From the IMG/VR virus record IMGVR_UViG_2698536536_000004: 13,314 nt of DNA; one strand, given 5' to 3'. Positions 7,744-11,984 of this stretch are shown here, piece by piece. Position 1 is the stretch's first letter. Each line of letters opens with the position of its first letter. Below the pieces are notes generated by a model, which worked only from the letters and a program-made list of their open reading frames with translations, did not search any database and was not told the DNA's origin. The position numbers and the translations under genes were made by a program. Source of the DNA: a virus. Lineage: Duplodnaviria; Heunggongvirae; Uroviricota; Caudoviricetes.

Positions 7744-7906
7744 GATTCCTCCTTGCTGCCAGTCGCAACCATTTTTTATCAACCAGGCTGGCGGTATATC
7801 CGAGCAGTGTTGGTATTTCGGAAGGCTTCAGCTCCGGTTTACGCTTACGACGATCTGGTACTCTGTAGATGTGTCCGTTCATGACACGAATAAGCGGTGT
7901 AGCCAT
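7736..7906 (-). CDS. ninE: NinE-family small protein (56 aa)
   Basis: Manual translation gives [56 protein letters not shown]. The start overlaps the ybcN stop (TAATG). It is below the ORF-track cutoff. Confidence 0.7.
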   Translation of the reverse strand: MATPLIRVMNGHIYRVPDRRKRKPELKPSEIPTLLGYTASLVDKKWLRLAARRNHG

Positions 7907-8361
7907 TACGCCTCCTGCTTGTCGCGGAGCAGCTGGAACTCGCAGCTCTGCGGAATAGTCAGGTGGCAGCCAATATTCACCGCCCAGGCTTCAACCTTAC
8001 ACAGGAAGACATACATCTCTCCGGTATCAAGATCGGAGGTATGGCGTAACGACTGGATAGTGGTGATATCACCGGTTACGACATCAACCAGGTCTTTGGT
8101 TTCATAACCGAGATATGTGTGTTTGAGAGCATCTTTTACCCAAGCTGGAGTAGCGAACGTTTTACCCCTGCTGATGAGGTATTCACTGATTTCGCTGTAC
8201 CACATGTGGCTGAGTGCATTCTGGGAAAGACTGCGTTTCTCACGCCACGGTTTAAGCACCATGCGAAAGCATTTGCCCTCCTCCAGATAAGGCTGGATCT
8301 GCCGACCGATAGCGGTGAAGTTACCGCGATGTAATTTGATGCCATCTTGTGGGAGATTCAC
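7906..8361 (-). CDS. ybcN: NinB-family recombination / DNA base-flipping protein (YbcN)
   Basis: The 151-aa product [61 protein letters not shown]... matches YbcN/NinB as recalled. The start codon is GTG, preceded by SD GGAGGT. Confidence 0.85.
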
Positions 8362-8548
8362 GCTTCACCTCCGCAGAGGTCAAACGCTGGATACAATATA
8401 TCGCAGGTGCATTTCTGCATCTGTGGAGGGAGAAGAGAGTTTGGATTGTGTGTGCGCATAAACGTCCCCGTTTAGCGCAGAAGTCACCGGAGTTGTTCAG
8501 GCTCCGATGACATGATTATGGCGAGTTGATTATCGCAAATCAAAGGTT

Positions 8549-8905
8549 TTAATTGTGCTTTATTCCTTCAAGCGTTGCCTTCATACCAACCAAAGAAATG
8601 TTTAGCTCTCCAACTTTCTCAGGGCTATATAATTCAGAATGAAGCCAATATTCTAATTTATCTAAACATCTTTTAGCCAGCTCTCGATCAAAGTCTACGA
8701 CTTGGGAAGACGCTTCATACCAAAGCCTATAAAGTTTTTCTTCTTCGTTTGGGTTATTAGGCTCACCACGTTTTAATTTTTCAGTATATAAAATTGTTGA
8801 ATAAATCGCAGGAGTTAATCCAGTGATTGCCCTCTGCCGCAGATCGGATTTGTTTGTTATCCACCCCAACAGACGATCTCCCATCCATGTGATAATTGTA
8901 TCCAT
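8549..8905 (-). CDS. Hypothetical protein, 118 aa, AT-rich cargo gene of unknown function
   Basis: Uninterrupted ORF with an ATG start and predicted largely helical product (MDTIITWMGDRLLGWITNKSDLRQRAITG...). I recognise no family. It takes the place of ybcL/ybcM/ylcH in the K-12 DLP12 order. Confidence 0.5.
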   Translation of the reverse strand: MDTIITWMGDRLLGWITNKSDLRQRAITGLTPAIYSTILYTEKLKRGEPNNPNEEEKLYRLWYEASSQVVDFDRELAKRCLDKLEYWLHSELYSPEKVGELNISLVGMKATLEGIKHN

Positions 8906-9366
8906 GCTTTAGCCCTTCTTAGTAAATAGTGTGTAGGGCGACTGAAGGACCGAGTTTATGCTTTTTCGCATTGCTTTCAGTTAGTACACCGGTATCGCAC
9001 CGGAAACAATCCTACGGCAAATTGGTTGTCTGACCTCTCGGTTTTTCGTGCATTAACCGATACCCACTACAGTCTCGGCGAAAGCTGCACACCCCCAGGG
9101 TGTACTGGTAGCACTCGGCACAGCCTAGCACGCCACTTTCTTCTCACTATCCAGTCTAATTTTATCCCCTAGTCAGACACTCAGATGTAGTGCTCCGCAG
9201 CGGCATGCGGGGGAATACAAAAACTCGGACAAAATTGGGCCCTCCTTTTTGAATCACTCGCGGGGATGTAGTTATTAATACATGGAAAAAGATCTGTTTT
9301 CAAATCCAACATTATATGGTTTCAATACCACGGGGTGGCTATGTGTTTCTCATTGTTAATTGGAAT

Positions 9367-9690
9367 CTACTGTAATCGATCCGAACGTAAATGCGGCAAA
9401 ACTCGACTCCACTTATCATCCTGCCACGGCCGGAATTTTACATGTGCCGTTTCTCTGGCAAGGATTGCCTGTGCCTTATTGAGTATCTGGGGATATTCTT
9501 GCTCGATAGAAGTGAAGCGACCAGCTTCACGATGCTCCGCAACCTGAAGAAGAGGAGTAACGTTCTGGTAGGTAATTAACATCACATTCCCTGCTCGCCA
9601 TAACCAGGCGAGTGTGCAAAGTTCGTTATCAGTGAATTGTTTTGTGATTGGGTATTGTTGAACTGCTAGAACGAGAACGCCAGCATCCAT
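9367..9690 (-). CDS. Hypothetical protein, 107 aa, unknown function
   Basis: ORF with ~50% GC (MDAGVLVLAVQQYPITKQFTDNELCTLAWLWRAGNVMLITYQ...). Overlapping plus-strand ORFs 9335-9547 and 9391-9579 are probably shadows. The SD is weak. I recognise no family. Confidence 0.45.
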   Translation of the reverse strand: MDAGVLVLAVQQYPITKQFTDNELCTLAWLWRAGNVMLITYQNVTPLLQVAEHREAGRFTSIEQEYPQILNKAQAILARETAHVKFRPWQDDKWSRVLPHLRSDRLQ

Positions 9691-9764
9691 TGGCAGTCTC
9701 TATAGTAAAACCATAGCTCAGGACGCTTCGTTCAGGATAGATAATTTTATTGTACTTACCTAAC

Positions 9765-9800
9765 TTTCTTATTATAGCACGGTTGAAAAAGTGATTATTA
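9765..9800 (-). promoter_or_regulatory. Candidate extended -10 promoter (TGcTATAAT) upstream of the 107-aa ORF
   Basis: The minus strand reads cgTGcTATAAT at 9771-9781, about 80 nt upstream of ATG 9690. No clear -35 is present. Confidence 0.25.
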
Positions 9801-9801
9801 C

Positions 9802-11328
9802 TCAAAAATAAACCTCACCATCAACCATATATTTAAGAGTACTTATCGCCTGCTGGGCGGATATTGTTTTCATTAAAGGATAGTGTTTAAAAACAATGCC
9901 ATTCATAAAATAGATATCACAGGTTTTATTATCTGTATTGATTATGATTTTTTCGAATGTTTTATAGGCAAGTGTACGACATAGCTCTCGCCCATTTTTA
10001 CTGGTTAAGTCAATAGCATGAAAATCACCAAGTGAACTCACCGCTTTACTCTTCAAAGTTTTTAATGATACAGAAGCCCTTCGTAATTCCTTATCTAATA
10101 CTCTGATTTTTTCTGCTATAGCGGTAACTTCAGGCGCAACAGATAATGCAGCAATTAAATTATTAATTTTCATCTGGAGCTCAATAATTTTCAACTCTAA
10201 AGTTTCATTAGCATCTTTCTTGTTTTCAACTGGTTGGATTTTACTACAATTAAAAAGCAACTCATTAATGATATTATAATCAACCAAATCTCTCTTTATT
10301 GATGGCCTGTCACATCGATGCAGTCTTCTCATCGGACAAACATAATAGCCATGCAAACTTCCAGATACCGCATGAACAATCATGGTATTACCACAAGCCT
10401 CGCACTTCATAACTGTTCGAAGTAGATTTATCAACATAGGATTTTTGCTACTATTGCTAATACCAAAAGGTGCCAACCGAATTTCCTGTACAGCGTAAAA
10501 CAAATCATCTGATATGACTCTGGGATAATAGCCAGCGATTTCACTTATTCCTTTACCTCTTGCACGATATGAAGGTACGCATATACCTATCAGAGCTTTA
10601 TTCGCTAATAATTTTTCAATTACAGAAGGTCCCCATGCACTTTCTTTTCCTGAGAAATTCTTTACAGCATGATCATTTAAATACTTGGCTATTGCATTCA
10701 ATGAGCGCCTTTCCATCCTGAGTTTAAAAATTAGCTCAATAGTTTTCACCCTGTCGGGGTCTGGAACAAAAGCCGTTCTTTTGTCATCTAAGGAGAGCCA
10801 TCTCGGACAAGACGCCGTCATAATCGTACCTGATTCCAGTGCATCCTGCCGTTTTTTCTTCCATGATAATTTAACCCGACTTGACTTTATCTCGCTTTCT
10901 TCATTTGCCCTTTGTGCTATAAGTATGGCTTTTATTAATGAATATGGCTCATTCAAAGAGTCAATATTATAGACTGTATTGTCGCAAAGAGTTATAACAT
11001 CAATACCGTGATTCAAAATCAATTTCAGACGTTCAATCGCTTCACCGACTTTTTCTCTTGAAAGTCTGTCCAGACTTTCAACTAACAATGTAGTTCCTGG
11101 CAATATATAACCATGCTCTATAGCATCTAAAAATTCCGAAAAAGCTCCTGATTGTGCATGCTTTCCTTTGAATGCACTTAATCCTAAATCTTCATATGTT
11201 ATGGTATCAAGATAATAATCACTATTTACCTTTAACCATTCAGCAATAAGTCTTCTCTGTCGGTTTAATGAGTCGCCAGACATCTGACCTGGTGATGAAA
11301 ATCGCATATATGCTATGGCTTTTTTCAT
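9802..11328 (-). CDS. ybcK: Large serine recombinase (YbcK-like): resolvase catalytic domain, recombinase domain and Cys-rich zinc-ribbon region
   Basis: 508 aa. The N-terminus AIAYMRFSSPGQ resembles a serine-recombinase catalytic motif. The size and the CEACGN...C/CPMRRLHRC cysteine cluster are typical of large serine recombinases. Very AT-rich. Matches my recollection of DLP12 YbcK. Confidence 0.85.
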   Translation of the reverse strand: MKKAIAYMRFSSPGQMSGDSLNRQRRLIAEWLKVNSDYYLDTITYEDLGLSAFKGKHAQSGAFSEFLDAIEHGYILPGTTLLVESLDRLSREKVGEAIERLKLILNHGIDVITLCDNTVYNIDSLNEPYSLIKAILIAQRANEESEIKSSRVKLSWKKKRQDALESGTIMTASCPRWLSLDDKRTAFVPDPDRVKTIELIFKLRMERRSLNAIAKYLNDHAVKNFSGKESAWGPSVIEKLLANKALIGICVPSYRARGKGISEIAGYYPRVISDDLFYAVQEIRLAPFGISNSSKNPMLINLLRTVMKCEACGNTMIVHAVSGSLHGYYVCPMRRLHRCDRPSIKRDLVDYNIINELLFNCSKIQPVENKKDANETLELKIIELQMKINNLIAALSVAPEVTAIAEKIRVLDKELRRASVSLKTLKSKAVSSLGDFHAIDLTSKNGRELCRTLAYKTFEKIIINTDNKTCDIYFMNGIVFKHYPLMKTISAQQAISTLKYMVDGEVYF

Positions 11329-11584: not shown

Positions 11585-11917
11585 TTAATGTGGTGTGCTT
11601 CGTGACAATAAATTAATAACCAACACACCGGCACAAATCAACATCATGCCTATAATGGCTGGCAGGTCCAGCCGTTGGCCGAAAAGTCCCCATGACAGTA
11701 AGCTAATCAGGACAATACCGACTCCTGACCAGATAGCATAAGCAATCCCTGTAGGAATATAAGCCAGCGTCTGAGCTAATAACCAGAATGATGCACAATA
11801 ACAAATAATTGTACCAACAGATGGCCATAACCGTGTAAAACCTTCTGAAAACTTCATTAAGGTTGTACCAATGACCTCTGCAAGTATTGCACCACCAAGA
11901 TAAATATAAGGGTTCAT
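11585..11917 (-). CDS. emrE: Small multidrug resistance (SMR) efflux transporter EmrE
   Basis: From the internal Met: MNPYIYLGGAILAEVIGTTLMKFSEGFTRLWPSVGTIICYCASFWLLAQTLAYIPTGIAYAIWSGVGIVLISLLSWGLFGQRLDLPAIIGMMLICAGVLVINLLSRSTPH (110 aa). It has four TM helices and the conserved Glu14, and AGGAAAG lies upstream. The six-frame ORF starts at 11971. Confidence 0.9.
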   Translation of the reverse strand: MNPYIYLGGAILAEVIGTTLMKFSEGFTRLWPSVGTIICYCASFWLLAQTLAYIPTGIAYAIWSGVGIVLISLLSWGLFGQRLDLPAIIGMMLICAGVLVINLLSRSTPH

Positions 11918-11984
11918 AGAATATTCTTTCCTGTTCAAACTGGAGAGAATTGTACTACAGTTTGAACTCAACTCACCTGTTTCA

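Follow-up and report, generated by a model that had tools for sequence, protein, structure and literature searches.

Comparative evidence for a structured, non-coding RNA of about 332 nt beside a variable cargo slot of lambdoid prophages

Background

What occupies a 460 bp stretch of a lambdoid prophage that lies between two small genes and is free of open reading frames (ORFs) of 60 codons or more on either strand? The question is raised by the virus record IMGVR_UViG_2698536536_000004, a sequence of 13,314 nucleotides (nt) analysed here at its full length and termed the window, in which such a gap (positions 8906-9366) separates minus strand ORFs of 107 and 118 amino acids (aa). A preliminary description, made from the letters of the sequence alone, proposed that the gap was either a structured RNA or a decayed gene. 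Comparison with related phages firmly establishes, at the level of sequence, a conserved, non-coding, strand-specific RNA element with a complex fold and sharp boundaries. The interpretation favoured here, with confidence a little better than even, is that the gap is the gene for an autonomous, fold-dependent non-coding phage RNA of about 332 nt, an RNA 'moron'.

Lambda-like prophages of Escherichia coli are among the most studied of genetic elements, yet this RNA has neither a family assignment nor, among the matches listed, a RefSeq annotation; in roughly 3% of complete E. coli genomes, a gene at this site has been left blank by annotation pipelines. For a non-coding RNA of bacteria it is of large size, and the comparative evidence for its fold, two tertiary contacts among it, is unusually clear. 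Again and again, a large structured RNA carried by a mobile element has proved to be a ribozyme, a guide RNA, a template or an assembly scaffold. Since the host is tractable and two of the phages carrying the element, Turner and IdasGreatGrand, are culturable, the function of the RNA is directly testable. Furthermore, the RNA serves as a marker: it stands at the left edge of a hot spot in which at least five families of orphan cargo proteins are housed, and new prophage cargo, perhaps including defence or exclusion genes, can be collected by searching for it.

Results

A sharply bounded island of constant length

The gap was found by blastn in 159 of 5426 complete E. coli genomes, with neither a gene nor a pseudogene annotated beneath it by RefSeq/PGAP among the matches listed, as well as in four phage records: Turner, IdasGreatGrand and two Klebsiella phages. 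KSC207, FORC_041, EC93 and NCTC9699 are examples of E. coli strains with a copy. Pattern scans of IMG/VR and metagenomes, followed by nhmmer searches, gathered about 85 complete copies comprising 30 distinct sequences, and a few more distinct sequences found beside homologues of the cargo genes described below brought the total to about 35, which are 74-100% identical (74% being the minimum for any pair). Every copy is 330-332 nt in length. In the window, the conserved body is placed as follows:

8936-9267, minus strand: structured RNA body, 332 nt, AUCCCCGCGAG...CAGUCGCCC

The conserved stretch begins at a promoter-like sequence and ends abruptly after ...CAGUCGCC. For instance, between the window and locus L010 (loci in other phages are given as L numbers), the RNA is 99.1% identical and ungapped, while the 300-400 nt on each side are only 62-68% identical with many gaps. 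The copies in a Klebsiella phage and in E. coli 3426 are 78-83% identical and have different flanking genes on both sides; a 43-nt stretch in the 5' domain of the RNA is invariant across these lineages and that of the window. The conserved unit is the RNA rather than the ORFs, the genes on both sides varying from phage to phage. The minus strand element is hence shown to be a sharply bounded, length-invariant conserved island, and conservation among E. coli prophages, suggested as a check in the preliminary description, holds for this island between unrelated flanks.

Among 185,579 species-representative genomes no true copy was present, two pattern scans giving zero hits and then 13 chance hits, which indicates that the element is confined to accessory prophages. 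A looser pattern run over IMG/VR added no further lineage. Among E. coli, Klebsiella and related lambda-like phages, carriers are a minority; judged by the genomes scanned, lambdoid phages of enterobacteria have the element as a rare accessory.

A two-domain fold with two tertiary contacts

RNAalifold, applied to representative sequences, returned a fold of two domains, and a systematic search for covarying stacks identified two long-range helices. The parts of this model are located in the window at:

9164-9267, minus strand: 5' domain (RNA 1-104), helices 1-5, in which P1 closes a junction bearing the P2-P3-P4 arm and the P5 hairpin
8940-9156, minus strand: 3' domain (RNA 112-328), helices 8-19, with GACUGG/UCAGUC closing and two multi-helix arms
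9187-9192, minus strand: first half of the kissing loop, CACUAC in the P5 loop, pairing with 9065-9070 (helix 6)
9065-9070, minus strand: second half of the kissing loop, GUAGUG in the loop of the CCGAGAC/GUAUCGG hairpin
9171-9178, minus strand: first half of the pseudoknot, GUCUGACU, on the 3' side of the 5' domain, pairing with 9028-9035 (helix 7)
9028-9035, minus strand: second half of the pseudoknot, GGUCAGAC, within a near-invariant GAGAGGUCAGACAACCAA block

Across 24 sequences, the full model of 107 pairs in 19 helices has 96.8% of cells paired, compared with 33-43% when the partners are slid, and 29 pairs changed on both sides, compared with 4-8 after sliding; the covariation score is 0.245, compared with about 0.05, and values as high as those observed appeared in 0 of 500 shuffles. 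An earlier model built on 20 sequences gave 96.7% of cells paired, versus 33-46% with the 3' partners slid, and 23 double-changed pairs versus 3-7. Within the 3' domain, covariation is strongest in helices 9, 10, 11, 14 and 18. The 6-bp kissing loop is 98.6% paired, and three of its six pairs change on both sides (AU/GC 12:11; AU/CG/UA 11:8:5), with CGCAAC/GUUGCG, CACCAC/GUGGUG and CAUCAC/GUGAUG as the alternatives in other lineages. Similarly, the 8-bp pseudoknot, in which GUCUGACy pairs with GGUCAGAC, is 99.5% paired and has a C-G pair exchanged for U-A in the L149/L184 lineage. These two contacts are shown to tie the domains together.

The abundance of G-U pairs and a consensus energy of -167 kcal/mol, as against -142 kcal/mol on the opposite strand, fix the RNA strand as minus. 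A covariance model of the element, R1, constructed from the 24-sequence alignment, gives a full-length match to the window, confined to the minus strand (360.7 bits, E = 3e-101), and recovers full-length copies in all lineages. The proposal of a structured RNA in the gap is thus strongly supported by covariation and constant length, alongside the promoter and terminators described below, but the particular motifs on which the preliminary description relied fared less well. The three pairings it named are present as sequence and none is among the conserved helices: GGUAUCG finds its partner nearby, in CCGAGAC; CGAUACC is divided between the loop and the 3' arm of a different hairpin; and the CCAG/CUGG and CCGCA/UGCGG pairings are not kept in other lineages. 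The five CCGAG pentamers it counted on the minus strand are in fact four, plus one on the plus strand (CUCGG in the RNA). As the gap holds five of the window's 13 copies, there is a local enrichment; CCGAG was rejected as a repeated motif, the pentamers not being conserved in other lineages.

Predicted promoter and terminators

Sequence comparison provided a candidate promoter upstream of the body and defined the linker downstream of it:

9298-9303, minus strand: predicted -35 hexamer, TTGAAA
9275-9280, minus strand: predicted -10 hexamer, TATTAA, after a 17-nt spacer and 7 nt from the first conserved base
8906-8935, minus strand: linker with no intrinsic terminator and a weak GCCC...GGGC hairpin overlapping the ribosome-binding site

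In nearly all lineages, a -35 sequence of TTGAAA, TTGAAT or TTGTAT is found at the same place though its surroundings have diverged, and the -10 sequence in other lineages is TTTAAT or TTAAAT, ending 6-7 nt before the conserved body. A generic promoter scanner missed the -10 of the RNA because it requires an A at position 2 and a T at position 6 of this hexamer. Where the next gene is cargo B, cargo C or that encoding DUF1367, a strong intrinsic terminator, consisting of a 7-9-bp GC-rich stem and 5-8 U, is situated 4-5 nt past the body, L066 and L022 being examples. In the window, the 118-aa ORF starts 31 nt past the body. The minus strand of 7906-8905 contains no predicted intrinsic terminator, from the RNA promoter to ybcN-ninE-ybcO-rusA, and transcription of these nin genes in the lysogen might therefore come from the RNA promoter.

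Just upstream of the -35 hexamer, at about 9304-9325, is a stretch common to L067, L060, L085 and L158, ACCATATGTTGTATAG (AACCATATAATGTTGGA in the window), which could be an UP element or an operator. In L070 (IMGVR_UViG_3300029107_000019), the -35 region has been lost through recombination 30 nt upstream of the RNA; this locus retains the -10 region, and its RNA is 99.7% identical to that of the window.

Coding potential

Alignment of the copies shows the element to be non-coding: in several lineages all frames on both strands are interrupted by stop codons, copies differ in length by 1-2 nt, and the variable columns are spread over the codon positions (61/65/49) with no three-base periodicity. 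An antisense frame of 110 codons, open in a few lineages and closed in most, was considered and rejected. It is, together with the decay evident in the neighbourhood (a truncated antirepressor and a frameshifted ylcJ), what could be cited for the gap containing no RNA gene at all, being instead the relic of a protein gene or a site that acts as DNA (an origin, recombination site or operator array, for instance). That view is scarcely tenable, as the compensatory changes involving G-U pairs are strand-specific and sensible only for RNA, the length is held at 330-332 nt, and there are no repeats or iterons. The decayed gene entertained in the preliminary description was rejected on these grounds of constant length and covariation, and likewise on the lack of any coding signal and of any PGAP gene or pseudogene among the matches listed.

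In the 5' domain, a near-invariant AAGGAGG (RNA 24-30) is found 8 nt before a UUG codon that opens a frame of 19 codons (RNA 36-95), the two together spanning about 9173-9244. It is very improbable that the RNA has a dual function, also encoding a micro-protein from this frame (MSEFLYSPACRCGALHLSV). Although AAGGAGG and the frame are found in most lineages, at a spacing that fits translation initiation, a 1-nt deletion shifts the frame in L073, L149 and L184, and the Shine-Dalgarno-like sequence is itself lost in L073 and altered in L149 (AAGGUGG). Moreover, the variable codons undergo radical changes (G/R/E, L/P/Q) that track hairpin P5 and the kissing loop, and the invariant part has no synonymous variation; the frameshifts in three lineages and the radical replacements led to rejection of the micro-ORF. 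An exposed AAGGAGG could also bind ribosomes or the 3' end of 16S rRNA. As regards a hok/sok-type hydrophobic toxin of ~50 aa, no frame is open across the lineages, and the 19-codon candidate is not hydrophobic.

Comparison with known RNAs

The 4227 covariance models of Rfam 15, which include ROOL, GOLLD, IsrK/IsrJ, riboswitches and ribozymes, gave no match at gathering score in the whole window, none at E <= 10 in 8300-9900 and none on the RNA of six other lineages; the Rfam scan of the gap advocated in the preliminary description therefore matched no described family. ARAGORN found no tRNA or tmRNA gene in the window, and Tandem Repeats Finder found no repeats in 8362-9801 at a minimum score of 30. 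With regard to a retron, the RefSeq twin of the window has no annotated reverse transcriptase in the 9 kb to either side, and the neighbours of the RNA vary between lineages; with regard to a riboswitch, the linker and terminator are unconserved, no alternative pairing was seen and the downstream genes are mutually unrelated. Searches of the literature, including those with sequence strings, found no description of the RNA. Two candidates were discarded: the prophage small RNA svsR, which is 77 nt long, located at the 3' end of cI and unrelated, and an antisense target in the window, a 12-nt match to ybcN (8051-8062) that is no more than expected by chance and that other lineages do not conserve. 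No defining feature of known RNA families was found, and on its sequence the element is best filed as a new RNA class of narrow distribution.

The nearest analogies share only architecture or lifestyle with the element. ROOL and GOLLD are roughly 580-800 nt in length, compared with about 332 nt here. These large, ornate phage-associated RNAs, the subject of a cryo-electron microscopy study (bioRxiv 10.1101/2024.12.08.627333), are likewise carried by phages or prophages, with no conserved protein neighbour and function unknown, and are likewise multi-helical with long-range tertiary contacts, including complementary loops that could act within or between molecules. By contrast, the Rfam scans revealed no match to them in sequence or structure, and the hosts here are Enterobacterales rather than Firmicutes or rumen bacteria. 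A second comparison is with putL and putR of HK022, where a lambdoid phage RNA at or near a transcription start is followed by a terminator and then by genes; by analogy, the present RNA would act on RNA polymerase were it cis-acting. The put RNAs are about 70 nt long, consist of two stem-loops and lie right after pL or pR, unlike an RNA of 332 nt with 19 helices and a pseudoknot in the nin region.

Type III toxin-antitoxin loci (ToxIN, CptIN, TenpIN and AbiQ/antiQ), also carried on mobile elements, combine a constitutive promoter, non-coding RNA, terminator and ORF of about 170-190 aa, an order seen here in the cargo B and C lineages. However, their antitoxins are tandem repeats of 34-36 nt, of which there are none here, the cargo proteins have no match to ToxN or AbiQ, and in this case one RNA is paired with many unrelated proteins. 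The pRNA of phi29 is a phage-encoded structured RNA with loop-loop base pairing, although it has no sequence relation to the element. It is about 120-174 nt in length, found beside the packaging genes of Bacillus podoviruses, and needs loop-loop pairing for its function; lambdoid packaging is not known to need an RNA. Finally, the lambda 6S RNA of pR' and StxS (PMC7547250), short terminated transcripts of constitutive lambdoid promoters, offer the analogy of promoter-terminator RNAs expressed by prophages upstream of cargo or late genes. These are by-products of Q antitermination at pR' with little conserved structure, whereas the present RNA lies upstream of Q and has an extensive covarying structure.

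The variable cargo slot

At least six unrelated gene families are found just 3' of the RNA (L066, L022, L093, L003, L054 and 8549-8905 in the window), five of them without an assigned function:

Cargo A, 118 aa: in the window's lineage (8549-8905, minus strand)
Cargo B, 178-191 aa: two transmembrane segments, N-terminal and C-terminal (L085:7372-7908, L066:9460-10035)
Cargo C, 183 aa
Cargo D, 177 aa: L093:5704-6237 and L073
Cargo E, 95 aa
F, an ordinary nin gene rather than cargo: the DUF1367 gene directly after the RNA

In L054, which provides the last of these arrangements, the RNA and its terminator are followed by the DUF1367 gene, an ordinary nin-region gene. The genes upstream of the RNA also vary, including an antirepressor, a predicted dATP/dGTP pyrophosphohydrolase and others. 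The RNA is directly upstream of every cargo A homologue examined, down to 69% identity, of cargo B homologues down to 53% identity and of one cargo C homologue of 68% identity; it is absent beside the remoter homologues, at 39% identity for cargo B and at 51%, 44% and 39% for cargo C. The 39%-identical homologue of cargo B, in L157, has a non-lambdoid context.

The preliminary description anticipated defence or toxin-antitoxin cargo. None of cargo A to E matches a PADLOC, Pfam or NCBIfam family: cargo B has only a weak, below-threshold match to PADLOC LeoBC (E = 0.012), and cargo C, in other phages, shows just a weak HEPN-like hint, with the HEPN assignment not significant by Foldseek. Searches of the PDB with the sequences of cargo C and D found nothing. 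The N-terminus of cargo D, MKNIIIDSNAWNF, resembles the start of PIN-domain nucleases, with no family match.

The 118-aa ORF, judged by its homologues, encodes a real, conserved protein, assigned to PHROG 12412 (annotated as function unknown). Its family consists of 19 protein clusters with many invariant residues and named members from E. coli, Enterobacter and Obesumbacterium. An AlphaFold2 model (pLDDT 76) is a three-helix bundle, for which the PDB held no informative structural match beyond generic three-helix bundles. Its gene and the RNA probably share a transcript. A frameshift shortens cargo A to 66 aa in the L010 lineage, where the RNA is intact.

Discussion

As an autonomous gene, the RNA would have a sigma-70-type promoter of its own and be read in the direction of the phage early-right operon, and in most lineages transcription would stop at the strong intrinsic terminator a few bases past the body; in the window's lineage, which lacks that terminator, the RNA would double as the 5' portion of the mRNA encoding the 118-aa protein. 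The conservation of invariant unpaired stretches and tertiary contacts, coupled with the absence of a conserved antisense target, suggests that the RNA most likely acts through its three-dimensional fold. It would bind a host or phage protein or a ligand, or self-assemble via its complementary loops, base-pairing with mRNAs being a less likely mode of action. Its role may lie in lysogenic conversion, exclusion or phage development. The varied downstream genes would be cargo hitch-hiking in a recombination hot spot, of which the RNA gene would be the conserved left anchor; the RNA would work independently of any particular neighbour, with the cargo exploiting the hot spot and perhaps the promoter. 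Such independence is argued for by the unrelated downstream families, by L054 without cargo, by the broken cargo A of L010 and by the cargo homologues that have no RNA.

A number of observations weigh against autonomy, or temper the evidence for it. The promoter, start site and 3' end of the RNA are predictions, and a clear terminator is absent from the window's lineage and three others (cargo A, D and E), meaning that the RNA is not a separate transcript there unless processed. No partner protein, ligand or target was identified. The diversity underlying covariance model R1 is modest, at about ten lineages and an effective sequence number of 1.02, and some covariation counts hence reflect few events. 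The minimum free energy of the window's copy is no better than that of shuffled sequences (z = -0.54), and the term 'hairpin-rich' applied in the preliminary description is consequently not an observation that stands by itself and is not borne out by folding; the structure is shown by the comparative data only. Furthermore, a same-strand ORF is always found within about 110 nt 3' of the RNA, which stands directly upstream of every cargo A homologue and of every cargo B homologue of at least 53% identity. A role in cis explains this linkage at least as well.

The chief alternative, serious although somewhat unlikely, is accordingly a cis-acting leader or antiterminator within a portable expression cassette comprising promoter, structured leader and optional terminator, operating either by processive antitermination, like HK022 put or Bacillus EAR, or as a sensor controlling cargo read-through or translation in the lysogen. 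In addition to the linkage just described, the conserved body begins at the predicted transcription start, and layouts with and without a terminator are both tolerated, as an antiterminating leader would permit. In terminator-bearing lineages, the cargo gene starts about 15-50 nt past the terminator, leaving no room for a separate promoter, so that expression in the lysogen would need read-through. By contrast, the size of the RNA, 332 nt with two tertiary contacts, is awkward for such a role, the known antitermination RNAs, of about 70-120 nt, all being far smaller. The linker and terminator are unconserved, with no alternative pairing to the body evident that could serve as an expression platform, and the unrelated cargo families imply no common ligand logic. 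The RNA also persists with a broken cargo A and before an ordinary nin-region gene, while more distant cargo homologues function without it. Many of the same facts bear on an improbable third explanation, that the RNA is an antitoxin or regulator of toxic or abortive-infection cargo in the manner of type III systems. The order of promoter, RNA, terminator and ORF in the cargo B and C lineages matches ToxIN-like loci (the window's lineage is without the terminator), three cargo proteins are 177-183 aa in length and cargo B has two transmembrane segments. However, the RNA has no tandem repeats, no cargo protein matches ToxN, AbiQ or another PADLOC model, and Foldseek gave no significant HEPN assignment; six unrelated proteins would have to share one near-identical RNA, yet this RNA is missing beside distant cargo homologues and present in L054 without such cargo.

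A bolder reading, tentative and less likely than not, makes the RNA the first representative of a class of phage RNAs not previously described, compact, pseudoknotted and functionally tied to the hypervariable cargo slot. In one version, it would be a large cis-acting RNA licensing RNA polymerase to enter whichever defence, toxin or conversion gene has been recombined into the slot, and if this were true, it would constitute a portable RNA-based expression switch for morons. In the other, it would be an RNA particle made by the lysogen, self-assembling or protein-sequestering, that changes the outcome of phage infection.

Flanking genes and prophage setting

The window represents a DLP12-like lambdoid prophage with a RefSeq twin of 99.9% identity. 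The gene order around the gap and the ORF on its ybcK side are:

Minus strand of the RefSeq twin: replication P, ren-like, emrE, ylcJ, ybcK, the island, ybcN, ninE, ybcO, rusA, ylcG, quuD
9367-9690, minus strand: 107-aa ORF, an N-terminally truncated P22-type antirepressor

Both flanking ORFs had been described as unrecognised, which holds for the 118-aa protein alone. The 107-aa ORF matches Pfam P22_AR_C (E = 1.1e-15) and the PHROG anti-repressor Ant, and its RefSeq product name is 'P22AR C-terminal domain-containing protein'. Its sequence corresponds, at 83% identity, to residues 100-202 of a protein in locus L005 that is intact at 202 aa; the first 99 residues of this homologue have no counterpart in the ORF, and an intact 202-aa antirepressor precedes the same gap in other prophages. 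By this alignment, the ORF is the 5'-truncated remnant of an antirepressor, and it is probably not functional as one. The positions and lengths given for the two ORFs (9367-9690 and 8549-8905) agree with the ORF list, as does the absence of any ORF of at least 60 codons from 8906-9366, which contains ORFs of 48 and 43 aa only; a 70-aa plus strand ORF starting at 9335 leaves the gap. The composition reported was also accurate: the GC content of the gap is 0.47-0.52, compared with 0.32-0.40 in its neighbours (0.35-0.40 in the 118-aa ORF and 0.32-0.38 on the ybcK side).

In K-12 DLP12, the order at the same slot is ybcK-ybcL-ybcM-ylcH-ybcN, as the preliminary description stated in proposing that all three intervening genes had been replaced; since a ylcH-like ORF of 33 aa is still annotated in the window, at about 8358-8459, those replaced relative to K-12 are ybcL and ybcM only. 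K-12 DLP12 has its own unannotated gap of 464 nt at the equivalent place, from ybcK to ybcL (L186:4430-4893), and covariance model R1 detected no copy of the RNA in this prophage, that gap included. As in K-12 DLP12, the window has ybcK, of a recombinase family and without a PADLOC match, at 9802-11328 and emrE at 11585-11971, both on the minus strand. Elsewhere, the window carries an intact ompC/nmpC-type porin gene and iss.

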